A DNA stretch of 49,280 nt from a virus. Numbering within the stretch: position 1 is the stretch's first letter; the number at the start of each line of letters is the position of its first letter. The translations under genes were made by a program, and so were the position numbers. The stretch lies in UHGV virus genome UHGV-0151084, one strand, 5' to 3'. The notes below the pieces were generated by a model. The model was not told the DNA's origin. It saw only the letters and a program-made list of their open reading frames with translations, and did not search any database. This document shows positions 1 to 49,280 of this stretch, in pieces.

Positions 1-1391
1 CCTGTCTTTTGCACGGCGTTACCAGCCTTGTTTACCGTTTCCTGTAAACCGAGGTATTCGATAACGGCGGCAACGGTCGATTTCGCAAGAATATCCCGCC
101 CGACTTTTGTCAGAGTTGCCAGGCTGGCGACATCATTCCCCGTAAAATACGGAAACCTGTCTGCCGTAGTAGCAAGCCCGGCCAGCGCCGTCAGGGTGGC
201 ATCTTTCGGTTGCTTACCCGCAAGCGCGTTAGTCATGGTGGTCGCAAAATTCGGGTCGTTGCCCAACGCCGCAGCCAGCTCGTTCAGCGTATTCAGCGCG
301 TCAGGCGACGAGTCCACGAGGGCAGCGATCGCAGCCATAACATAAGCCGTGCTTGCGATCTGAGTATTGTTAGTACCTTTTGGCGCAGTTGGTGTTGTTG
401 GTGTTCCGGTCAGCGCCGGACTGTTCAGGGGCGCTTTCTTGTTCGTTTCATCCATTACCACCTTTACAGCTTTCGATGTCGCGGCCAGTGTTTCAGACGT
501 GCTGTTGGTGGCACTACTGAGCTGAGTTATTCCCCTTACAGTCAGTGAAGCTACAGGCACATTTGTTATCTGCTCCCACGAATGCGTGTGATTGGACGGA
601 GCCTTTCCGGCCGCAAGATCATACGCTGCCTTAACAGCCTTTGGTGTTGCTGCTAGCGTTTCAGACGTGCTGTTGGTGGCACTACTGAGCTGAACAATCC
701 CTTTTCGCGCTGTGGTAGCGTCCTGTGCGGTGTATTTGCCATTAGCCAGGTCATATGCTGCCTTAACAGCCTTAGGCGTCGCAGCAAGCGTTTCAGACGT
801 GCTATTGGTGGCGCTGCTAAGTTGAACAAAACCTTTTGAGGTTAAAGTTGCATCAGGATGATTACGTGATTGCTCATGTTTCACAATGGCTTGCTTAAGC
901 CGTTTTGCTGAAACAGCAAGGGAATCATCTGTACCTGCATCAATTTCTTGTTCATTAGCAAATCTTGCCACCCCAACAACAGTTTCGGTCGCGGGAGGAT
1001 TAATAAACTCAATATCACCAAATGTAATATTTTTAGTATCAAGAGTTTTAATTGCTATATCACTTGATATTAAAGCGATAGTAGATGATGCTTTATTTAT
1101 TATTGCTTGTTCTTGTGAGTATACAGCAAACAACGTACCCTTATTCGTATACAATCCTATTGTATGGACAACATACTCATCTTTACTATCATCCTTCGCT
1201 GTTACATGAATTGTATCAGGGGAAACAACTTTGCCACCTATTGTGGTAAGTCGTTTTATTTCGTTTGTTATATTTGTTTGTGAAGTTGACGTGACATAAT
1301 ATCTACTACCTAAACCAACAGAAACAATCTCAACTTTATTTGTTCCTGTTTTGTTGGCATTAACCAGCTCCTGACGCCCGGCGTCAGTCAT
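1..1391 (-). CDS. Tail fibre protein, constant N-terminal part (P2 gpH / Mu S-like); ATG at 1391, 3' end runs off the window start through a gix-like site
   Basis: Minus-strand translation from 1391 gives a continuous ORF of about 463 codons with three tandem ~33-aa repeats (G[IF]VQLSSATNSTSETLAATPKAVKAAYDLA) typical of phage tail-fibre shafts; sits after baseplate gene I; not in the ORF track because no stop lies inside the window. Confidence 0.8.
   Translation of the reverse strand, partial: MTDAGRQELVNANKTGTNKVEIVSVGLGSRYYVTSTSQTNITNEIKRLTTIGGKVVSPDTIHVTAKDDSKDEYVVHTIGLYTNKGTLFAVYSQEQAIINKASSTIALISSDIAIKTLDTKNITFGDIEFINPPATETVVGVARFANEQEIDAGTDDSLAVSAKRLKQAIVKHEQSRNHPDATLTSKGFVQLSSATNSTSETLAATPKAVKAAYDLANGKYTAQDATTARKGIVQLSSATNSTSETLAATPKAVKAAYDLAAGKAPSNHTHSWEQITNVPVASLTVRGITQLSSATNSTSETLAATSKAVKVVMDETNKKAPLNSPALTGTPTTPTAPKGTNNTQIASTAYVMAAIAALVDSSPDALNTLNELAAALGNDPNFATTMTNALAGKQPKDATLTALAGLATTADRFPYFTGNDVASLATLTKVGRDILAKSTVAAVIEYLGLQETVNKAGNAVQKT
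39..64. other. gix-like recombination site A (TTCCTGTAAACCGAGGTATTCGATAA) inside the 3' end of the tail-fibre constant region
   Basis: 26-bp site resembling Gin/Hin-family crossover sites as I recall them; positions 1-52 are the exact reverse complement of 46165-46216. Confidence 0.6.
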
Positions 1392-3458: not shown

Positions 3459-3922
3459 AATAATTTACCTAACGCACTTCTAGTTTTTGACTCTATATTG
3501 CCAGCAATATCAACTAATGCTTCTTTCAGAGAGGTCTGTCCGACTTCCTGTAATTTAATGCCGACGATAATCACTCGTGGATTCCCAGTTGGACCGAAAT
3601 AAGTCCATGATTCCTCTATATCTGTAATTATAAAATTACCAAAATACTGAATACCAATTACAACAGGATTTACTTCCTGAATTGATTGCATTGTCCTAAG
3701 TAATGAAAGCGCAGCCAATGGAACAATGCCAAGTGTTGTATCCAACCGCATATTAAAACTAACTTCATCCAGATCTGGACCTATATCCTCCAGAACAGGT
3801 TTAAGCCCAATAACATCATGGCGCGCTACACGACGCTTTGACGTCCTTTTAAAATTGTTGAACGTATTCACCACTATTGATGAGGCAACAAAAGGCATTG
3901 TACCAAGCATACCCACAATCAT
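3455..3922 (-). CDS. Putative baseplate/tail protein
   Basis: 155 aa ORF translationally coupled between V-like and W-like genes; no recognisable motif. Confidence 0.35.
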   Translation of the reverse strand: MIVGMLGTMPFVASSIVVNTFNNFKRTSKRRVARHDVIGLKPVLEDIGPDLDEVSFNMRLDTTLGIVPLAALSLLRTMQSIQEVNPVVIGIQYFGNFIITDIEESWTYFGPTGNPRVIIVGIKLQEVGQTSLKEALVDIAGNIESKTRSALGKLL

Positions 3923-4539
3923 GCCTGAGCCTCCGTTGTCGGAGCGTATTCCCCCTGAGCCGTGTGATGGTGGCCTTTAGATTTAATCCCATCAACATCT
4001 ATATCACCACCAACAACCTTAACATCCCCAGAAATTGTAGCTGCAACACCTCCAGCAGAAGATCCTTTCATTCCACCTTTGAAGGTTAGTAATCCTTCAA
4101 CTGTAGCATTTCCGGTAATGATGGTTTCTGGAGCATCAATAGTTACGGTTCCTGTAGCCTTAACGGTTACATCTCCGACAGCATCAACAAGGAGTAAATT
4201 AGATTCTCTGTCTACCTCAATACGAGTTCCGTTATTAAATCTAATGACGCGTTTATTAACAGTATTAGATGGCGGCTTCTGTGTTTCATCATAAAAACTA
4301 CCAAGAATAAAACCTTGTTGCGGCCCTGCGGGATGAAAGATACACAAAACTTGCTCACCAATATCTGGCATCCAGTAATCAGCATTCTTATCCGTATTTT
4401 TCACAATAACTGATAACTTTGCCGAAGTGACGTTATCCTGATCATCGAAAGTAACTCTTGCTGTAACATCACCATCATCAATATCAGAAACAACGCCAAC
4501 TCTTATAGTCTGACGTAATAATGTTTCTAAATCATTCAT
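3919..4539 (-). CDS. Baseplate spike protein, gpV-like
   Basis: 206 aa; glycine-rich beta-rich C-terminus (VKATGTVTIDAPETIITGNATVEG) as in gpV-family spikes. Confidence 0.65.
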   Translation of the reverse strand: MNDLETLLRQTIRVGVVSDIDDGDVTARVTFDDQDNVTSAKLSVIVKNTDKNADYWMPDIGEQVLCIFHPAGPQQGFILGSFYDETQKPPSNTVNKRVIRFNNGTRIEVDRESNLLLVDAVGDVTVKATGTVTIDAPETIITGNATVEGLLTFKGGMKGSSAGGVAATISGDVKVVGGDIDVDGIKSKGHHHTAQGEYAPTTEAQA

Positions 4540-27912: not shown

Positions 27913-28254
27913 TTCATAAAGCAACAAATTACGCGGTAATCGCTTAACGCAGTTTTACTACGTTAAATGAAACACTACACCCAGTTACCACCTAAAACAA
28001 GGTTTTCCCATAAAAAAACCTTCAAATCGTGGTTAATTGATCAATAAAAAAACAATACTCAACTTTTTACCAAACGAACATCCCGGCCAGGACTTCCATA
28101 ATATTCGCCGATATGCCACTGCTTAAGTTGAGTAATCTTCTCCAACTTAACTCCCACAGAATCCAATTTCTGCCATGTTTTCGGTTGTATGTGCCTCATT
28201 ACCCGCTCTGAATATCTGAATACTGCTCGTAATCGCATGGCTTCTCACTACAGC

Positions 28255-38748: not shown

Positions 38749-40013
38749 AAACGCTTCCGACCGTTAACACCCTACAGCCTATCCTGCATAACCAAATCCC
38801 TGTCATTACTACCGAGTTACTGGCACAGCTTTACGGCGTATCTCCTGTACGCATTCGACAAAATCATCATGAGAATAAGGAACGCTTCATTGAAGGTAAG
38901 CACTACTTCAAAATTGAAGGTAACGAACTTCGAGAGTTAAAGCACAAAGTGACTCAAGATAATGATGTGAAGAACAAAAACTCTTTAAGAGATTCAGTTA
39001 ATGACGCCCCCTCTAAAAGAGAGAGCGACGAGCACAGAGTAGTTTTAAACTACTCTGTTAACCACAAGGTAACTAAAAGTCACTCTGTGAAAATCGCCCG
39101 TAACGTTCGCTCCCTCATTCTCTGGACAGAACGCGGGGCTGCACGTCACGCCAAAATGCTTGAAACTAACCAAGCGTGGGATGTGTTCGAACGGCTGGAA
39201 GACTGCTACTTCAACCAGAACGCGCAAACGGCCGCGACCGTAACCGTCTCGCCAAACAATGCTCGTGAGGTTGTCGATACGCTCAACGCCAAACCGATGT
39301 TTTACATTAAGGTGTGCAATAACGAGCCACTCACAACCTCGGCCGATGTTGCCCAGGCATTCAGCACCACAAACAATTCCATCGTTATGGCCATCGATGC
39401 GTTACGCATTCCTCGCACAGCTGCGGCGCGTCATTTCTTTAAAGAGCAACGACCGTTGGAAGGAAGCGACCGCGAAATAACAATCTATCGCATGACAAAA
39501 GACGGATTTACCTTGCTCATGGAGAGCATCGACGGTCCAGGCGTAAAAGATATCAAGCTGGCCTACATTGAAGCCTTTAACGCTATCAGCAGCGTGTTAA
39601 AAACACAGTACGAGCGTGATCTGGCTAAACGACTGTACCAAGAAAAAACGATTATCCGCGCGGCAACAGAGCATAATCGGCTATTAACGGAACCGAACTA
39701 CCGCAAGACACTAATCAAAGAGTTTGACAAGGCGACGGAGAAAACTAAAGCGGCGCTAAGTCTGCCAGCAATGACTCAGGAAAATGTGATATCAGCCTTA
39801 CTTCTTGATCTGCTCAGGAACGCCAGAGCACTTATCAGCTTTGACGAGGACCTGAATCCTCAGCTCAAGCTACTACCACCGACAGGCAAAGTAGTCGACC
39901 AGGCTGATCACAACAGCATACTCAGCGTTCTGGATGCAAACCTGCCAGCCAGGACACTACAGGATCTGATAAAAACATGTGCTGATAAGCTGGCACAGAA
40001 AAGCAGACCATAA
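38745..40013 (+). CDS. Antirepressor (ORF6N-type N-terminal + Rha-type C-terminal domains)
   Basis: 422 aa; N-terminal IPVITTELLAQLYGVSPVRIRQNHHENKERFIEGKHYFKIEG; central TTSADVAQAF...TIYRMTKDGFTLLM resembles Rha. Confidence 0.7.
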   Translation: MKTLPTVNTLQPILHNQIPVITTELLAQLYGVSPVRIRQNHHENKERFIEGKHYFKIEGNELRELKHKVTQDNDVKNKNSLRDSVNDAPSKRESDEHRVVLNYSVNHKVTKSHSVKIARNVRSLILWTERGAARHAKMLETNQAWDVFERLEDCYFNQNAQTAATVTVSPNNAREVVDTLNAKPMFYIKVCNNEPLTTSADVAQAFSTTNNSIVMAIDALRIPRTAAARHFFKEQRPLEGSDREITIYRMTKDGFTLLMESIDGPGVKDIKLAYIEAFNAISSVLKTQYERDLAKRLYQEKTIIRAATEHNRLLTEPNYRKTLIKEFDKATEKTKAALSLPAMTQENVISALLLDLLRNARALISFDEDLNPQLKLLPPTGKVVDQADHNSILSVLDANLPARTLQDLIKTCADKLAQKSRP

Positions 40014-40821: not shown

Positions 40822-41094
40822 TCATTTGATCCCTTGTTCCAATTCTGCCGACACTTTAACCTTTTCCCATACAAGGGTTTGCAGCCTTAACAGAATCGCA
40901 TCTTTATCAAGGTGTGAAAGATCCTTAACCATATCGTCAAACGACAGAACGCGAATGGCCATCTCCATGACCCTCGGCGGCACCCCCTTCTCATATCGCT
41001 TATATGTAGCCAACGATATCCCAAACTCTTCGGCGGCTCGCTCCTGCGTCCAGTTCATCCCACGACGCCATAATTTCAATTCGTAACCCGTCAT
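40822..41094 (-). CDS. XRE-family HTH regulator
   Basis: 90 aa; HTH (MNWTQERAAEEFGISLATYKRYEKG). Confidence 0.55.
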   Translation of the reverse strand: MTGYELKLWRRGMNWTQERAAEEFGISLATYKRYEKGVPPRVMEMAIRVLSFDDMVKDLSHLDKDAILLRLQTLVWEKVKVSAELEQGIK

Positions 41095-41195
41095 TACATC
41101 CTCTACCTTTCCCTAGATATTCAATAAATTAGACATAGCCACTCACGACAAAATAAGATGTATTAACAATCCAATCTTTAGGCTTTAGGTAAAAA

Positions 41196-41621
41196 ATGAG
41201 TTCATCTGCTTTTGTCACCGTGGTCACTGGTGTAAGTGTTTTTGTTCTAGGCCAACTCATCGTCAAAGGAGCTATTGAGCCTTACATTTCATTCAGGGAA
41301 CAACTAGGGAAAATATCCAATCTGTTATTGTGTAACCAAGCAAAAATAGTGAATCCTGGCTCGAACTTAAAGCCAGAAATCATTCATGATCTAAAAGATT
41401 CCGCAGCACAGTTAATGGCGAAATATTCCACTTTACCTTTCTATATCAAAAAGTTACATATCGGCTTTCGTCTTGTTCCATCAGACACCGAGATTCTTGG
41501 GGCAGCTCAAAATTTGAACTATATAGCGTCAATACATGAAGGTAAGACTGGGGAGAATCCATCTAAGCATCTCGAAGAGATTGGCCATATGCTCAAAATA
41601 CCAACTACCTATTCAAGCTAA
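41196..41621 (+). CDS. Hypothetical single-pass membrane protein (AT-rich accessory gene)
   Basis: 141 aa; N-terminal TM helix; lower GC than surroundings; divergent from HTH regulator. Confidence 0.4.
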   Translation: MSSSAFVTVVTGVSVFVLGQLIVKGAIEPYISFREQLGKISNLLLCNQAKIVNPGSNLKPEIIHDLKDSAAQLMAKYSTLPFYIKKLHIGFRLVPSDTEILGAAQNLNYIASIHEGKTGENPSKHLEEIGHMLKIPTTYSS

Positions 41622-41724
41622 CCCAATGTAAGTTATCGGCTTGCCCCACAATAAGTTATCTATCTTCAAACGCCCCCTATATTAACACGCGCAAAGTGTC
41701 AAAATGACACTTTGCGCATTGTGT

Positions 41725-42105
41725 TTACTTAACGAGGAATAAAAATGGTTTATTGTTCGGCGGTGTAATCGGGGCTGGCTCGCTTTTGCTCATGCGATCA
41801 GTGTACCAGGCCAACTCCTTGTCAAAGTAAGCCTGATTAAAATAGGCCATGAATGTAGTTTCAAATCCATAACGACCGCTAATACGCAGCATCTGATTGC
41901 CGTTCTCTGTTTCCAGATATACCTGGGCACGTTCCTGATTCTCCTTCAGCCAGGTTAAAGCCTCATCGCATGAGGACACACGATACTCATCATCGTAGCA
42001 GTCATCGATGCGGCTTGAGGAAGAACGGCAAATCACGCCAACAGAACCAGCCAGGATAGTTTGAATTTTAAGGAAAGCGTTTTTGCGGATTTTAATCATG
42101 CTCAT
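41725..42105 (-). CDS. Hypothetical protein, gene behind copy 3 of the repeated promoter module
   Basis: 126 aa; N-terminal hydrophobic signal-like segment. Confidence 0.45.
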   Translation of the reverse strand: MSMIKIRKNAFLKIQTILAGSVGVICRSSSSRIDDCYDDEYRVSSCDEALTWLKENQERAQVYLETENGNQMLRISGRYGFETTFMAYFNQAYFDKELAWYTDRMSKSEPAPITPPNNKPFLFLVK

Positions 42106-42225
42106 CGGGTTATCTCCGGTTTAACCAGGGCGGGTATCGCTCGGTTTCGGGTATAACCTTAGGAAATTTTTTCCCACATGTAAAGCACTTTTTATATAAA
42201 TCTATAATTATATAATTCTGTGAGC
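42106..42225 (-). promoter_or_regulatory. Repeated promoter/leader module, copy 3
   Basis: Near-identical to copies 1 and 2; preceded upstream by a terminator at 42227-42254. Confidence 0.6.
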
Positions 42226-42226
42226 A

Positions 42227-42254
42227 CAAAAAAGCCCCTTTGCAACAGGGGCTT
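42227..42254 (-). terminator. Rho-independent terminator downstream of HigA-like gene
   Basis: Hairpin AGCCCCT/AGGGGCT followed by T6 on minus strand. Confidence 0.6.
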
Positions 42255-42268
42255 ATCATTCGTTCTGA

Positions 42269-42568
42269 TCAGATGTTAAACGCTATTCGTTTTCCTGTGG
42301 GAAGCTCAACATCCAGGCTTAATTTGCCTCCCATAGCTTCAACGTAACGCTTTAATGTCGCCAGCTTTAAATCATTTCCGCGCTGCTCCAGCTTTGTTAC
42401 TGCTGGCTGGCTTATACCCATCGCCTCAGCAACCTGTTTTTGTGATAACTGGAGTTCTTCACGCATCATCTGCAAGCCGACCTCAAGAATCATCTCATCT
42501 GCCATTTCTTTAATTCGCGCCTGGCTTTCCGGTGAACGGCTGGCAATCGCCTCATCTAATGTTCTCAT
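42269..42568 (-). CDS. higA: HigA-like HTH antitoxin
   Basis: 99 aa; HTH (LSQKQVAEAMGISQPAVTKLE); start overlaps toxin stop. Confidence 0.65.
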   Translation of the reverse strand: MRTLDEAIASRSPESQARIKEMADEMILEVGLQMMREELQLSQKQVAEAMGISQPAVTKLEQRGNDLKLATLKRYVEAMGGKLSLDVELPTGKRIAFNI

Positions 42569-42921
42569 TACTTGCTCTCCAGTGTGTTCAGATGTGCTGC
42601 AAACTCATCCTCAGCTATACGCACCAGTTTTTCATAAAACCGCTTATCGTTACTTTTGTCTCCTGCACAAAGAACGATGGCCCGGCGAATCGGATCGAAC
42701 GCATAAAAGGCTCTTATCGGACGGCCAGAAAACTGAACGCGAAGCTCTTTCATATTTTTGTACCGAGAACCTTTTACGGTATCGGCATATGGCCTAGGTA
42801 ACTCAGGTCCGTAAACCTGTAGCTTTTTCAAATCAGCCAAAACCTTTTCCTGAAGAGCGTCTTCTTGCTCATTTAGCCAGTCGTCAAATCGCTGGCTAAA
42901 AAGTACCGTCCACATGCTCAA
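42568..42921 (-). CDS. higB: HigB/RelE-family toxin (addiction-module killer)
   Basis: 117 aa; toxin-upstream-of-antitoxin arrangement; C-terminal region resembles RelE/ParE-superfamily killers. Confidence 0.65.
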   Translation of the reverse strand: MSMWTVLFSQRFDDWLNEQEDALQEKVLADLKKLQVYGPELPRPYADTVKGSRYKNMKELRVQFSGRPIRAFYAFDPIRRAIVLCAGDKSNDKRFYEKLVRIAEDEFAAHLNTLESK

Positions 42922-43159
42922 TCCTATAACCTGTAGTTTATATCACTAACTATATAACCTGTGAGTTATAATTTCAAGAAAAACGGGGCTATTTAACATA
43001 ATGGACGTTATCGGCACCACCGGATCACCGTTCATTGTCGGATCTAAAAAATCCGCTCAAAAGATCATGTTTTCCTGGGCGTTTTCCACCGTTTTTTATG
43101 TTGCTTATTTGTTAATGAAATCTCGTTTTCAGTTTCGCCTCATTTTCGACGCGAAAGCC

Positions 43160-43450
43160 CTATTTTTGTGACTTTACTCCTGGCATATGGACTTCCCAGC
43201 GACGAATCCCCATAGCTGCGCAAAAATCAGCCACATAATTCAATCCCGCCCATTCGCGGATACCACCACGGGCTTTTTCAATGAAAACGGCAATCCCTTT
43301 TTTATTGAGAGCAAAAAGCCGCCAGCTTTTTGTCACTTCGTCCTGGGTAGCCACAACACAAGTGAAAGCTCCCATGCGATACAGGTCCAAGAACTCTTTG
43401 CGTGTTTTGCGTACAAGTTCCATAACAAACCTCATATTTGCATGTTTCAA
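43160..43450 (-). CDS. Hypothetical protein
   Basis: 96 aa ORF. Confidence 0.35.
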   Translation of the reverse strand: MKHANMRFVMELVRKTRKEFLDLYRMGAFTCVVATQDEVTKSWRLFALNKKGIAVFIEKARGGIREWAGLNYVADFCAAMGIRRWEVHMPGVKSQK

Positions 43451-43746
43451 ACATCTGTTTTGTTATCAATGAAGATTAACCCTAACCCAGCGAAGTAACA
43501 CAGCAGCGCCCAGGCTGCATACGGAATGCTGGATCTGGATGTGGACTCCTTTAACATCTGCCAGTTGCGAACATTGCGACTATCTTTTAAGCCTAGTTTT
43601 TTGGCCAACTGCGAGCCGCTCATTCCGGTCAGGCCAATGACTGCCCGAACTTCTCCACATGTAGGAGATTCCCATTCATCCGCTTTTTTTAAACAAGCCG
43701 GATTCAACATTTTTAAAACAGTATCTTTATCCATAACCATCTCCAT
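43447..43746 (-). CDS. Putative HTH DNA-binding protein
   Basis: 99 aa; HTH-like GMSGSQLAKKLGL, hydrophobic C-terminus. Confidence 0.35.
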   Translation of the reverse strand: MEMVMDKDTVLKMLNPACLKKADEWESPTCGEVRAVIGLTGMSGSQLAKKLGLKDSRNVRNWQMLKESTSRSSIPYAAWALLCYFAGLGLIFIDNKTDV

Positions 43747-44227
43747 TTATTATATCTACGATGGTAGGAAATCTTTTCCTATGTGGCAATAGAAATTTAC
43801 TACATTGCGTATAAGACAAGTTTTCTATGTCTAATAGGACATGATGTTTCTTACGTTTTATCGCGTTCTGATGGCTACTGTGTGCGTATTTATCGACGTT
43901 TATTGATAAGGCTCGCCCCTTCCTCCTGCAAAGCCCGGCCGTAGGCCTTATTTCGGCCTTATATAAATTGATTTTGTATAGTTCGAAACGCGCCGTTTCG
44001 AAAAGGATGATCAGGCTGCTCCATGCCTCCGGCAAGTGCCGGAGGAGGTATATTTGAGCGTAGCGACTCGAACCGGCGCGAGCTTTAGCTCGCTGCAAGG
44101 GCGAACATATTCACAGGCAAAGCCTGCGTAAGTTAAATAAAGAAAGTCTTAATAAAAGAAAGTGATTTTGCATTTATTTGTTTAGTGCATCTATTATAAA
44201 AAACCATTTGCATATACATATCAAAAC

Positions 44228-44236
44228 TGTGGATAA
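44228..44236. promoter_or_regulatory. DnaA box (TTATCCACA on minus strand) within putative oriR downstream of repA
   Basis: Perfect consensus 9-mer in AT-rich region 44150-44300 about 140 bp after repA stop. Confidence 0.5.
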
Positions 44237-44377
44237 CTTTATTAGCCGATGCCTGTAAAGGCGATATTTTTGCTGTGTTCAGGTTTAGAGAAAATTAATT
44301 TAGATTGTTTTTTGAACAGATATTTTATTGCGACGTAGATAATCCTCCGGTAAAACCGGATTCATCATTCAGGTGGG

Positions 44378-45226
44378 TTAATGTTGGAGTGATTTCCAAG
44401 TCTTTCTTAACCTGTTATAACGCTGCTCAACGAGGGATCGTAAATATGCAAGGTCAGCTCCAGGATACATGCCATCAGCAAATTCCTGGCTAACCTCTCT
44501 AGTGATTTGATGACGAAGTTCGGCCTCTCCCTTTTCCCGAACAAGACGCGCAGCTCTCTCCGCTGCTTTCTGTTTTGCCTTTATCTCTCTGGCCGTCTTC
44601 CTCTGACGCCATACATTCTCCATCTGCTCCTGAATAACAATACGCTTATAATCAGCCTCCGTTATCGCTTTTTTAAGCCGTTCGCTATTCTTCGCATTGA
44701 AGTAATTAAGTTTCTGGCTAACCGCACGTCTCCATGCTTGTTCAGTAATACCAACGGTTTCCAGCAGTTGATCACGAATCTCTATTTTCGCTGGCCAATA
44801 CTGTTTATTCACCCGATCCCAGCGACGTTCATAATCAATAAAACCTAACGCTTTCAGTTGCGACAACGCCCTTGTACAGCGCGTTATAGACTTGTTCCCA
44901 GCTTCGGATACGGTAGACAGACCGCAAAAATCAGCCAACGCCTCAGCACTGGCCAGAACCCGCTTAGAAATGATGTTTACATGGTGCAAAATCGCAGCAA
45001 TCACAGCATTAATCGCCCGACGACGATGCTCGTTTATCCGGCGTTTCCGCTCTGACGGTTGATTAACGTAGAACGCAACCTCACACGTAAGATCACGACC
45101 ATTAATGCGCTGTAAAGCATCAGATAACACCAGCGGCAGCTTGTGCGTATGGTGCTTTGGAGGCTGGAACTCCGGCGACAAATTACAAACGTAAGCTGAA
45201 CGTAGAGACGGCATTGGTCTATCCAT
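44378..45226 (-). CDS. repA: Replication initiator RepA, IncFII (RepFIIA)-type
   Basis: Central region LSTVSEAGNKSITRCTRALSQLKALGFIDYE aligns with IncFII RepA1 (LATESAAGKLSITRATRALTFLSELGLITYQ); start placed at internal ATG 45226. Confidence 0.8.
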   Translation of the reverse strand: MDRPMPSLRSAYVCNLSPEFQPPKHHTHKLPLVLSDALQRINGRDLTCEVAFYVNQPSERKRRINEHRRRAINAVIAAILHHVNIISKRVLASAEALADFCGLSTVSEAGNKSITRCTRALSQLKALGFIDYERRWDRVNKQYWPAKIEIRDQLLETVGITEQAWRRAVSQKLNYFNAKNSERLKKAITEADYKRIVIQEQMENVWRQRKTAREIKAKQKAAERAARLVREKGEAELRHQITREVSQEFADGMYPGADLAYLRSLVEQRYNRLRKTWKSLQH

Positions 45227-45241
45227 ATGTTCGCTCTTGCG

Positions 45242-45348
45242 TCCACGGAAAACCAACGTATAATGGGAGTTGTCGAGGCGCCCATGGTTAATTGTTGGTT
45301 TTCCGTGGATGTCGCAAGAAGCCCGCAGATTTATCTGCGGGCTTTTTG
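45242..45348 (+). ncRNA. Candidate CopA-like antisense RNA in repA leader
   Basis: Plus strand: perfect 16-bp inverted repeat (45242-45257 / 45294-45309) then terminator GCCCGCAGAT/ATCTGCGGGC + T5, antisense to the repA 5' region. Confidence 0.45.
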
Positions 45349-45536
45349 TTTCCATATCTGGTCGCTTTCCAACCAGACACCCACAATCATAACCACGTTA
45401 CGTGGTTTTAAGAGAACTCTACCACAACACTTTCGGTCATGCACGAAGTCTCTCACTGATCGAACGATAATCCACCAGTAAAAGGATCTAAATTGGATCT
45501 CGTTTTGCGAGCATCATACTACTGGCCTAACTCCAG

Positions 45537-46091
45537 TCAATGATTCCCAGCCGGAAACCTGCGGTAAAGCGTGGATAAGGTAACATCGAAGATAATCGCT
45601 ATCCGCTTACGTGAAACACCATTCGCAATAAGCCTTCCGATCTGTTCCCATTGCTCTGGGGCCAATTTTGAGCGGCGTCCTCCTATCCTGCCATTAGCCC
45701 TTGCCACCGCCAATCCTGCACGCGTTCTTTCAATCATATTTTCCCGCTCCATCTCTGCGACTGCACTCAGCATCGTGTAGGCAAAGCGGCCAATTGAAGT
45801 GCTAATTTTTATCCCTTCCGTAATCGAAATAAACTCAATGTTGTTTGATAAAAAATGGTTAAGTAAATCAACAAGATGAATCAGAGAACGCCCCATTCGA
45901 TCCAGCTTCCAGACAATAACCGTATCGCCCGGCCGTAACACCTTCAGTAGCTTATCAAGCCCTGGTCGTTTTGATTTAGCACCGGATATTTTATCTTCAA
46001 AAATCCGGTCACATCCTGAACTCCTGAGCGCCTCCAGTTGTAATTCCAAATTCTGGTCAAAAGTTGACACCCTCGCATAACCATATTGCAT
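45537..46091 (-). CDS. Serine DNA invertase, Gin/Cin/Hin family
   Basis: 184 aa; YARVSTFDQ catalytic-serine motif, C-terminal HTH; 64 bp from gix-like site B. Confidence 0.85.
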   Translation of the reverse strand: MQYGYARVSTFDQNLELQLEALRSSGCDRIFEDKISGAKSKRPGLDKLLKVLRPGDTVIVWKLDRMGRSLIHLVDLLNHFLSNNIEFISITEGIKISTSIGRFAYTMLSAVAEMERENMIERTRAGLAVARANGRIGGRRSKLAPEQWEQIGRLIANGVSRKRIAIIFDVTLSTLYRRFPAGNH

Positions 46092-46119
46092 ACTTTCTAA
46101 ACCGCGATTGTTGCTAAAA

Positions 46120-46194
46120 GCGGGAAAAAATATCGTTCAGACGACACAGAGGCAATTCGCAAAAACCTCGGTTTACAGGAAACGGTAAACAAGG
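46120..46194. repeat. Left arm of inverted repeat flanking invertible tail-fibre cassettes
   Basis: 75 bp with 2 mismatches to the reverse complement of 49206-49280. Confidence 0.8.
46156..46181. other. gix-like recombination site B (TTCGCAAAAACCTCGGTTTACAGGAA)
   Basis: Inverted relative to sites A and C. Confidence 0.6.
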
Positions 46195-46205
46195 CTGGTA
46201 ACGCC

Positions 46206-47186
46206 GTGCAAAAGACAGGCGATACCTTGTCCGGTGGACTTACTTTTGAAAACGACTCAATCCTTGCCTGGATTCGGAATACTGACTGGGCAAAGATTGG
46301 ATTTAAAAATGATGCCGACAGCGACACTGATTCATACATGTGGTTTGAAACAGGCGACAACGGCAATGAATATTTCAAATGGAGAAGCAAACAAAGCACC
46401 ACAACAAAAGACCTGATGAATCTTAAATGGGATGCTTTGTATGTTCTTGTCAATGCCATTGTAAATGGCGAAGTCATATCAAAATCAGCAAACGGCCTAC
46501 GTATTGCTTATGGTAATTACGGATTCTTTATTCGTAATGATGGTTCAAATACATACTTCATGTTGACAAACTCCGGTGACAACATGGGGACTTATAACGG
46601 ATTAAGGCCATTATGGATTAATAACGCTACTGGCGCTGTTTCGATGGGGCGTGGCCTTAATGTTTCAGGGGAGACACTTTCAGACCGTTTTGCTATTAAC
46701 AGCAGTAATGGTATGTGGATTCAGATGCGCGATAACAACGCTATCTTTGGGAAAAATATAGTTAACACTGATAGCGCTCAGGCGTTGCTTCGCCAGAATC
46801 ACGCCGACCGAAAGTTCATGATAGGTGGACTGGGGAACAAGCAATTTGGCATCTACATGATTAATAACTCAAGGACAGCCAATGGCACCGATGGTCAGGC
46901 GTACATGGATAATAACGGGAACTGGCTTTGCGGCTCGCAAGTTATTCCCGGAAACTATGGCAATTTTGACTCCAGATATGTGAAAGATGTTCGACTTGGT
47001 TCACAGCAATATTATGGAGTGAACAACTGGCAAACATGGAATTTCCAGTGCCCGTCAGGTCATGTATTGTCTGGTATTAATGTTCAGGATACAGGGTCCA
47101 ACTCTGCCGATAATATAGCGGGCGTTTATTACAGACCCGTTCAAAAGTATATAAATGGCACCTGGTATAATGTAGCGAGCGTTTAA
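46206..47186 (+). CDS. Tail fibre variable C-terminal cassette (Sv'-like), currently not joined to the constant region
   Basis: Frame is open from 46101 through site B; first residues [15 protein letters not shown] identical to the end of the constant gene at the window start. Confidence 0.75.
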
Positions 47187-47187
47187 T

Positions 47188-47715
47188 ATGATGCACTTAA
47201 AGAACATAAAAGCGGGTAACGCTAAAACACTGGAACAGTATGAGTTAACAAAGAAACACGGAGTTATCTGGCTTTACTCTGAGGACGGAAAAAACTGGTA
47301 TGAGGAAGTGAAAAACTTTCAGTCAGACACAATAAAGATTGTTTACGATGCAAATAATATTATTGTCGCCATCACTAAAGATGCCTCCACGCTTAACCCT
47401 GAAGGTTTTAGCGTCGTTGAGGTTCCAGATATTACAGCCAACCGCCGCGCTGATGATTCAGGAAAGTGGATGTTTAAGGATGGAGCTGTAGTTAAACGGA
47501 TTTATACGGCAGACGAACAGCAACAACAAGCCGAATCACAAAAGGCCGCATTGCTTTCCGAAGCTGAATCAGTCATCCAGCCGCTGGAACGCGCTGTCAG
47601 GCTGAATATGGCAACAGACGAGGAACGCACACGACTGGAAACATGGGAACGCTACAGTGTTCTGGTCAGCCGTGTGGATACGGCAAATCCTGAATGGCCA
47701 CAAAAGCCTGAGTAA
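47188..47715 (+). CDS. Tail fibre assembly protein (Tfa, U'-like)
   Basis: 175 aa; conserved Tfa pattern (NWYEE...[14 protein letters not shown]...KWMFKDG). Confidence 0.8.
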
Positions 47716-47721
47716 AAATTA

Positions 47722-47740
47722 AGGCCCGATATCGGGCCTT
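47722..47740. terminator. Bidirectional hairpin between convergent Tfa genes
   Basis: AGGCCCGATATCGGGCCT palindrome. Confidence 0.5.
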
Positions 47741-47743
47741 CTC

Positions 47744-48277
47744 TCATTCTGGTTGTTCGGGAAACGTTACTGGCAGGCTGGAGGTGTCTGTGGATTCGAC
47801 TTTCTGCGCGTAGAGCATCCACTCGGTTAATTTTTGTTTATTCTCGTCGGAAATGATGCCCAGCCGTAGCTGTGAGTCCCATAGCTGGGTTTTATCCCTG
47901 ACAAGTTGCAACAGGCTTTGCTTTTCATTCTCTGCCTGCTGCCTCTGTTCCTCCTCGGTATAAGTTCGCTTTATCACTACGCCATCTTTGAACATCCATT
48001 TACCCGAAATATCAGCCCGGCGATTTGCTGTAATATCAGGTAATTCAACGACGCTTGCGCCTTCTGGATTAATTGCTGAAACATCCTTTTCAATACAAAT
48101 AATAACGCCGTTGTGGTCATAGACCATTTTCAACGTATCAGGCTGAAAGTTCTTTTGTTCCTCATACCAGTTTTCCCCATCCTCTGTATAAAGCCATTTG
48201 ATGTTAAATTGTTTCGTTAGCTGGTATTGCTCTTTTGTTTTAGGGTTGCCAGCAGTAATATTTTTTAAGTGCATCAT
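47744..48277 (-). CDS. Tail fibre assembly protein (Tfa, U-like)
   Basis: 177 aa paralog of 47188..47715. Confidence 0.8.
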   Translation of the reverse strand: MMHLKNITAGNPKTKEQYQLTKQFNIKWLYTEDGENWYEEQKNFQPDTLKMVYDHNGVIICIEKDVSAINPEGASVVELPDITANRRADISGKWMFKDGVVIKRTYTEEEQRQQAENEKQSLLQLVRDKTQLWDSQLRLGIISDENKQKLTEWMLYAQKVESTDTSSLPVTFPEQPE

Positions 48278-48279
48278 AA

Positions 48280-49280
48280 TTAAATACTCCCCGCGTTATA
48301 CCACGTTCCATTAATGCAATACTGAATTGGCCTTGCCTGAGTTGTATCAATTAATTCATCACGGTTTCCGTTAACTGACCCCGTAACGACATAACCTGAC
48401 CTGTCAGACCAGCCGGGACCATTCCATGTCTGAACAGATGACAGACCGCCAAGACGAATACCTGTAATAAACCTTGAGTTACATTCTGCCTGCGTATATG
48501 CACCAACATCTCCCGCTGATGGCTTACGTGTTGTGGTGTAAATTTCTGACCAGTCAGCTTCGAATCCGTAACCATCACGCGCTGAACGATAAAAAATACC
48601 GCCGTTCCTGTAATTCACACGGAACTGTACGGCAGGGCAACTCCCCGTATTCATATTGAAGTGGAGGATTAATGTCGATGCGCCACCAATATTTGCGTTA
48701 TAGACCCCGCTATTCCAGTTCCAGCCAACAGCTTTATCATTTCCGACAGTGCTTCCTGTTTGCCCTAAAGCAAATGCAGGCTGCTGGTTTTTCGTGTTGT
48801 AGTCTCGTCGCCAGCCAGGAGCATAAGCATCACCATGATTAATATAAGTGAATTGAGCGTTAGTGATTCCGCCACCGCTGGAAGTGCTCGGGGTGGTTAC
48901 ACGGATGGTCATGGCTCCTTTATTACCCATAACCTCAATAACGCAACCTGCAAGATGAATAGTTCCACAGCCAGTATCGGTAATAATTTTATTATTGCCG
49001 TATGACCATGAACATTTGCACATCCAGTATGGGTGATTGAATGCCCCTTGAGAATCAAGCCATTCAATCAATTGTGCCGTTGTCCAGTTCCCTGCCCCTG
49101 TACTAATAGCACTGTGAAAAGCACGACATGCACCAATATTTTTTGTGAAGGTATCTTTTCCAGGAATATCTGCGCCGTTCTGGTTTTTCTGTAATGCGCC
49201 AGAAGCCTTGTTTATCGTTTCCTGCAAACCGAGGTTTTTGCGAATTGCCTCTGTGTCGTCTGAACGATATTTTTTCCCGC
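48280..49280 (-). CDS. Tail fibre variable C-terminal cassette (Sv-like); frame continues through site C beyond the window end
   Basis: Track start at 49227 is a TTG artefact; frame stays open upstream (…KKYRSDDTEAIRKNLGLQET…). Confidence 0.75.
   Translation of the reverse strand, partial: GKKYRSDDTEAIRKNLGLQETINKASGALQKNQNGADIPGKDTFTKNIGACRAFHSAISTGAGNWTTAQLIEWLDSQGAFNHPYWMCKCSWSYGNNKIITDTGCGTIHLAGCVIEVMGNKGAMTIRVTTPSTSSGGGITNAQFTYINHGDAYAPGWRRDYNTKNQQPAFALGQTGSTVGNDKAVGWNWNSGVYNANIGGASTLILHFNMNTGSCPAVQFRVNYRNGGIFYRSARDGYGFEADWSEIYTTTRKPSAGDVGAYTQAECNSRFITGIRLGGLSSVQTWNGPGWSDRSGYVVTGSVNGNRDELIDTTQARPIQYCINGTWYNAGSI
49206..49280. repeat. Right arm of inverted repeat (truncated by window end)
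   Basis: Reverse complement matches 46120-46194. Confidence 0.8.
49219..49244. other. gix-like recombination site C (TTCCTGCAAACCGAGGTTTTTGCGAA)
   Basis: Same orientation as site A, inverted relative to site B. Confidence 0.6.

Follow-up and report, generated by a model that had tools for sequence, protein, structure and literature searches.

The described systems closest to the locus reported here are the invertible G segment of phage Mu and the C segment of phage P1. Mu has a constant portion of the tail-fibre gene (Sc), followed by a crossover site (gix), a variable part with its chaperone gene (Sv-U), a second pair in reverse (U′-Sv′), another gix and an invertase gene, gin, which reads outward and lies 67 bp from the G boundary. 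Both Mu sites, gixL and gixR, have the sequence TTATCCAAAACC TC GGTTTACAGGAA, and the segment has 34-bp repeats. The P1 C segment is 4.2 kb long, with inverted repeats of about 0.6 kb and a TT crossover core; cin points towards the segment, its 3′ end adjoining cixL. Min of plasmid p15B and Pin of e14 also act on tail-fibre cassettes, p15B having six crossover sites and many cassettes; Hin of Salmonella flips a promoter. Here we describe a region of the virus genome UHGV-0151084 that is very probably an invertible host-range switch of the G-segment type, belonging to a temperate P2-like phage-plasmid with an IncFII-type RepA. The whole stretch of 49,280 nucleotides (nt) is called the window, and all coordinates and strands refer to it. 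The switch is of the textbook Mu/P1 type, in which a phage builds either of two tail fibres, a hedge on its host range, and the phage-plasmid family that carries it, with the same invertase, is already present in GenBank and RefSeq; literature searches turned up nothing specific on the family or on its switch.

The features of the switch in the window, with lengths of proteins in amino acids (aa), are:

53-1391, minus strand: constant N-terminal part of the tail fibre (Sc), about 447 aa by translation, with its ATG at 1391
39-64, minus strand: site A, the gix-like site on the Sc side, TTATCGAATACC TC GGTTTACAGGAA, core at 51-52
45537-46091, minus strand: DNA invertase, a small serine recombinase of 184 aa, an open reading frame (ORF) that reads away from the segment
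46007-46069, minus strand: putative recombinational enhancer in the 5′ end of the invertase gene, with two 15-mers matching the Fis consensus
46092-46155: spacer sequence of 64 nt from the invertase ATG to site B
46156-46181, plus strand: site B, the gix-like site on the invertase side, TTCGCAAAAACCTCGGTTTACAGGAA, that is TTCGCAAAAACC TC GGTTTACAGGAA, core TC at 46168-46169
46170-47186, plus strand: variable C-terminus of cassette 1 (homologue of Mu S and P1 S, the G(+)/C(+) fibre), with a Gp34_trimer match
47188-47715, plus strand: assembly chaperone of cassette 1 (U homologue), 175 aa, Caudo_TAP match at 5.2e-37
47744-48277, minus strand: assembly chaperone of cassette 2 (U′ homologue), 177 aa, Caudo_TAP match at 5e-37
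48280-49230, minus strand: variable C-terminus of cassette 2 (homologue of Mu S′ and P1 Sv′, the G(-)/C(-) fibre), with a gp37_C match
49219-49244, minus strand: site C, a recombinant junction of the inner half from cassette 2, GGTTTGCAGGAA, and the invertase-side outer half, TTCGCAAAAACC

The order of these parts is that of Mu, and the invertase reads away from the segment as gin does, unlike cin of P1. The distance from the start of the invertase gene to the site (64 bp) is close to that in Mu. The segment measures 3.06 kb with repeats of about 41 nt, shorter in both respects than the P1 C segment, and its core is TC, as in Mu, rather than TT. The invertase family and the kind of crossover site are also those of Min in p15B, Pin in e14 and Hin in Salmonella; in contrast to p15B there are two sites per molecule here, and in contrast to the Hin system the segment consists of coding cassettes.

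DNA comparison of window positions 46162-49238 revealed identities of 92.8% to the Mu G segment, 92.0% to the G segment of D108 and 93.8-95.0% to the P1 C segment, collinear across both cassette sets; the C segments of P1, P7 and D6, which are likewise carried by plasmid-prophages, were 94-95% identical. The cassette 1 fibre protein is 87% identical to Mu S and 86.5% to P1 S, and its chaperone 91% to Mu U and 93% to P1 U. The corresponding values for cassette 2 are 91% to Mu S′ and 94% to P1 Sv′ for the fibre protein, and 98% to Mu U′ and 96% to P1 U′ for the chaperone. By this collinear similarity, the segment is a direct homologue of Mu G and P1 C, related to them by descent. The original prediction, made from the sequence alone, had proposed such a match, with two mirror-image sets of tail-fibre variable region and Tfa chaperone beside a Gin/Cin-family invertase 64 bp from site B. 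All of this was borne out: the segment is 92-95% identical at the DNA level with a gix architecture and cassette proteins at 87-98% to those of Mu, the opposed ORFs carry Gp34_trimer, gp37_C and Caudo_TAP domains, and the invertase has Resolvase and HTH_7 domains, with exactly 64 nt counted between it and the site (46092-46155).

The tail-fibre gene is split. Sc is the last gene of the baseplate and tail operon on the minus strand, with the baseplate genes upstream on the same strand, and the cassette to which it is joined receives from it a promoter, a start codon and an N-terminus. Sc is considerably longer than its counterpart in Mu (about 170 aa) and contains three Phage_fiber_2 repeats (PF03406, 2.1e-59; about 480-860 on the minus strand, motif xVQLSSATNSTSETLAATxKAVK); Tandem Repeats Finder, run on 1-1500, found no array at the DNA level. 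The cassette 1 ORF (46206-47186, plus strand, 326 aa) belongs to a frame that stays open all the way from the crossover site and in which no start codon precedes the GTG at 46206, and the cassette 2 ORF occupies 48280-49227 on the minus strand (315 aa). Joining Sc to cassette 1 gives an ORF of 785 aa, as long as the S protein annotated in plasmid AP025749, and joining Sc to cassette 2 gives an ORF of 763 aa; neither has an internal stop. The segment thus holds two opposed cassettes, each with a chaperone and each in frame with Sc, and matching S genes are annotated in relatives. The S protein of the relative from strain ATCC 25922 is annotated as 802 aa, against the 763 aa predicted here for the same fusion. 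Antisense to site B and the first part of cassette 1 lies an ORF of 126 aa (46097-46477, minus strand), probably a spurious one, because it overlaps the conserved fibre frame.

Sites A and B lie in inverted orientation, share the TC core and have an inner half, GGTTT(A/G)CAGGAA, identical to that of Mu gix; both Mu and the present sites thus combine a TC core with the inner half-site GGTTTACAGGAA. The outer halves, in contrast, are TTATCGAATACC and TTCGCAAAAACC here, and TTATCCAAAACC on both sides in Mu. The outer half of site A matches Mu gix at 10 of 12 positions and P1 cixR at 11 of 12, and that of site B matches Mu at 9 of 12. The 26-bp sequence of site B has two matches in the window, site C being one with a single mismatch, compared with 0.00 expected in shuffled sequences. 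The site A junction was also found in plasmid AP025749 and in 10 plasmid records overall, and site C is collinear with the invertase-side junction of the same plasmid. A relaxed palindromic gix core, AAACCNNGGTTT, searched for with one mismatch allowed, was found five times against 2.05 expected, which is chance level, and it was discarded as a search pattern; the two matches outside the switch (27994-28005 and 39291-39302) are therefore probably meaningless.

The ends of the window revealed how the two states of the segment are represented in it. Two further features are needed here:

1-55: contig-start overlap, the exact reverse complement of 46165-46219 (start of cassette 1)
49226-49280: contig-end overlap, the exact reverse complement of 46120-46174 (invertase-side flank and half of the site)

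A direct terminal repeat was sought at the window ends and none was found. The paired 55-nt inverted overlaps around site B are the signature of a de Bruijn assembly at k=55, in which the contig halted at branching vertices. The window is a circular phage-plasmid contig, with a true circle of about 49.18 kb, that was opened at a crossover site. Its start is the junction of cassette 1 and Sc, running through the third gix-like site at 39-64; its end is the junction of cassette 2 and the invertase flank; and its interior holds the junction of the invertase flank and cassette 1. One orientation of the segment accounts for the start and end junctions, the other for the interior junction. Since all k-mers of a de Bruijn contig derive from reads, both orientations were present in the sequenced sample. 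The mapping of reads for both orientations, suggested at the outset as a check, is thereby answered by the contig itself, which carries junctions of both states.

This reading of the contig ends changes the part assigned to two of the repeated elements. Sites B and C had been proposed as the pair that bounds the segment; both are present at 46156-46181 and 49219-49244, but only molecules whose segment is turned the other way from that in the window interior have the junction at site C. The invertase-side site in fact pairs with site A, which lies inside the constant part of the tail-fibre gene and was moved to the far end of the window by the contig break. A 75-bp inverted repeat had likewise been proposed to flank the cassettes. 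It is indeed present, within a 94-nt inverted repeat (46120-46213 versus 49187-49280, 89% identity), but most of it is contig-end duplication, and the outer part of the 94-nt repeat is absent as a feature from any single molecule. The true inverted repeat between the Sc side and the invertase side is about 41 nt (8 of 12 positions in the outer half, 2 of 2 in the core, then 27 nt with 2 mismatches), not far from the 34 bp of the Mu repeats. In the window the crossover core is present in three copies (37-54, minus strand; 46166-46183, plus strand; 49217-49234, minus strand), because the contig-end overlap duplicates one copy; the real molecule has two crossover sites.

Both states were also found among related plasmids. 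In NZ_AP025749.1, an Escherichia sp. plasmid, Sc is joined to cassette 1 and cassette 2 lies next to the invertase. In the ATCC 25922 plasmid, Sc is joined to cassette 2, and the junction predicted for this state was matched over 200 of 200 nt at 97%. Full-length junctions in PLSDB join Sc to cassette 1 in 10 records and to cassette 2 in 14. Junctions of both orientations are thus seen within one contig, through its exact 55-nt end overlaps, and across relatives. The relatives of about 48-49 kb (NZ_CP009073.1, NZ_AP025749.1 and the Yersinia phages vB_YpM_39/41/44) have the same flank, sites and Sc as the window, and an invertase that is identical or 98-99% identical. The ATCC 25922 plasmid and vB_YpM_44 differ in having another invertase-proximal cassette, of which the first 70 nt or so resemble cassette 2 before the sequence diverges; these mosaics lie at 3763-3870 in NZ_CP009073.1 and at 3893-4110 in vB_YpM_44, and the inverted repeat in those genomes is longer. 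Such mosaic cassettes suggest cassette shuffling within the family. A comparison of vB_YpM_39 with vB_YpM_44 as siblings in opposite states was not relied on, the invertase-proximal cassette of vB_YpM_44 being a different mosaic.

The invertase itself is intact. It has the properties of serine invertases, namely a length within about 180-195 aa, a resolvase domain, a C-terminal helix-turn-helix (HTH) and a serine near position 9; the Pfam domains Resolvase (2.6e-44) and HTH_7 (2.9e-13) were found, and the best match among solved structures was Gin (3UJ3, 8.8e-62). Alignment with Gin and Cin, also suggested as a check, agreed with membership of this family: the protein is 55% identical to Gin, without gaps over Gin residues 1-181, and 56% identical to Cin, again without gaps, and by the Gin alignment the catalytic residues Y5, R7, S9, D64, R65 and R68 are kept. 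It is somewhat shorter than Gin (193 aa). Gin and Cin are 75% identical to each other, against 55-56% here, and this invertase is therefore a more distant branch of the family. It is 100% identical to a protein of vB_YpM_39 annotated as 'hin', occurs at 98-99% identity on many E. coli contigs of 46-49 kb, and has versions at 88% identity on contigs of about 90-100 kb.

Near its 5′ end, the invertase gene carries two 15-mers that match the Fis consensus, at coding nt 23-37 (46055-46069) and 71-85 (46007-46021), 48 bp apart from centre to centre. The consensus, (G/T)NNYRNN(A/T)NNYRNN(C/A), was reportedly set out by Hubner and Arber in 1989. When the first 150 nt of gin, cin and this gene were aligned, matches were found at nt 23-37 and 71-85 in all three, so that the Fis-consensus sites fall at the same invertase codons as in Mu. 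The differences from gin within the 15-mers sit at unconstrained positions, and the cin enhancer annotated in the P1 record covers cin nt 19-90, spanning both columns. The pair is weak evidence that fits a conserved enhancer.

The carrier of the switch is a temperate P2-like myovirus kept as an IncFII-RepA plasmid, that is, an E. coli phage-plasmid; Mu, by comparison, is a transposing phage. Between about 1443 and about 20000, the minus strand encodes the structural module of a P2-like myovirus, with baseplate, tail, head and terminase genes. Other features of the carrier are:

44378-45355, minus strand: RepA of the IncFII type, by domain match
42568-42921, minus strand: toxin of the Gp49/HigB type, 117 aa (PF05973, 5.7e-23)
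42269-42568, minus strand: antitoxin-like ORF with an HTH_3 domain, 99 aa, overlapping the toxin ORF by one base

In relatives, the toxin of the pair at 42269-42921 is labelled RelE/ParE or HigB2, and its partner an HTH protein. The backbone matches, at 98-99% identity, the circular E. coli plasmids NZ_CP009073.1 (ATCC 25922, 48.5 kb) and NZ_AP025749.1, which measure 48-49 kb, and, at the same level, the Yersinia phages vB_YpM_39/41/44, isolated on Y. pestis EV76-CN. Near-identical genomes have been isolated as plaque-forming phages, and this phage-plasmid family makes virions. Within the first 115 nt or so of the repA ORF there is a perfect 16-nt inverted repeat (45242-45257 and 45294-45309), and an adjacent 16-nt hairpin (45315-45330 and 45333-45348) also lies within the start of this ORF. 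These repeats (45242-45348) may be a replication-control element of the IncFII type; a scan of 41000-49280 against Rfam gave zero matches.

The following mechanism is proposed. The constant 5′ part of the split tail-fibre gene, Sc (1391-53, minus strand), would stay outside the segment and end in the 26-bp gix-like site, and the 3.06-kb segment would offer two promoterless and startless alternative 3′ parts, each followed by its own chaperone gene and facing the other. The invertase would bind the inverted sites on the Sc side and the invertase side; with Fis on the enhancer in the 5′ end of the invertase gene, strand exchange at the shared TC core would flip the segment. One orientation would yield Sc with cassette 1 and U, a fibre of 785 aa of the Mu G(+) type, and the other Sc with cassette 2 and U′, a fibre of 763 aa of the Mu G(-) type. 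The late tail operon would then express the cassette fused to Sc together with its chaperone, and a population of lysogens would release virions of two receptor specificities and hence of differing host ranges. The sequence shows the anatomy, the homology, the two intact fusion frames, the intact catalytic residues and the presence of junctions of both orientations in this assembly and among relatives; catalysis by this invertase, its dependence on Fis and the hosts served by each fibre are what we infer.

Several observations weigh against an active switch of this kind. The outer halves of the two sites, TTCGCAAAAACC on the invertase side and TTATCGAATACC on the Sc side, differ at 4 of 12 positions, and the sites are therefore less symmetric than those of Mu. 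A scan of 45300-46400 at a threshold of 9/12 found no consensus promoter for the invertase in the 64-bp spacer; a weak 8/12 candidate was picked out by eye on the minus strand of the spacer (TTGCCT at 46155-46150, 17 nt, then TATTTT at 46132-46127). The Fis consensus is degenerate, with a background of 0.0072 per position, and its matches lie in coding sequence that is conserved anyway. The fourth junction, between cassette 2 and Sc, is absent from the contig and only deduced. The evidence for two states also comes from a contig without read counts, and this leaves room for a fixed relic, in which two related strains occur together, each frozen in one orientation, with no ongoing inversion. 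Complete related plasmids have been deposited in either state, so a mixed sample could hold both, and the 55-nt overlaps show only that both junction types were in the read set. We nevertheless regard a fixed relic as unlikely: the invertase is full length, has all its catalytic residues and recurs at 98-100% identity on many contigs of 46-49 kb, the TC core is common to both sites, the Fis enhancer consensus, degenerate as it is, is intact, both fusion frames are open, and the rest of the 49-kb contig is one unbranched path, contrary to what two diverged strains would give.

The three copies of the crossover core could also be taken at face value, as three real sites in one circle forming a multi-site system like that of Min in p15B, in which sites C and A would enclose a mini-segment of about 100 bp; the lack of a direct terminal repeat marking a simple circular overlap agrees with this. 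We give it next to no credence. Both window ends are exact 55-nt reverse complements of the interior, as an assembler's k-mers would leave them, and literal closure of the window from end to start was rejected, as it frameshifts the tail-fibre gene with a stop at codon 522. The joined sequence was absent from all 138 matching plasmid records; the best plasmid matches to a 300-nt query across the join cover 200 bp, and the plasmid records therefore do without the extra 100 nt of overlap. In the relatives, the S gene is continuous and the sites number exactly two, unlike in a Min-type system. Another explanation concerns purpose rather than structure: the inversion might mainly serve the lysogen, for instance by switching a surface-acting or exclusion protein, and not the host range of the virion. 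According to a 2025 report on PinQ, a serine recombinase of the Pin type, adsorption of phage T2 is inhibited when this enzyme inverts DNA of a cryptic prophage (PMC12529663), a precedent for such a role, and the present element is carried long-term as a plasmid, with IncFII RepA and a toxin-antitoxin pair. Against this stand the complete structural module, the isolation of near-identical genomes as plaque-forming phages, and the cassettes themselves, which are the functional S/U and S′/U′ genes of Mu and P1 at 87-98% identity and sit at the end of the tail operon without start signals of their own; a role mainly in the lysogen is thus very unlikely. By analogy, inversion might also matter to the lysogen in addition to virion host range, for example through its sensitivity to other phages, which we consider improbable. 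The host-range switch therefore stands as the preferred explanation; it is real and probably active.

The annotation of the relatives could be improved, both for the invertase, which related records label only as 'recombinase family protein' or 'hin', and for the silent cassette, which is unannotated in at least one of them (ATCC 25922). For scans of assembled genomes, exact inverted overlaps of length k where a contig ends show that an invertible segment occurs in both of its states, and it is also possible to mistake them for long inverted repeats or additional recombination sites. For the biology of these phages, the G segment of Mu and P1 (92-95% nucleotide identity) is found here in a carrier unrelated to both, the third known, where its partner is an invertase that shares only 55% identity with Gin; this is a clear case of modular exchange of host-range cassettes. 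A divergent invertase working on an inner half-site identical to that of Mu might further suggest that the G segment was captured whole by exchange between unrelated phages, a reading to which we give a low probability.

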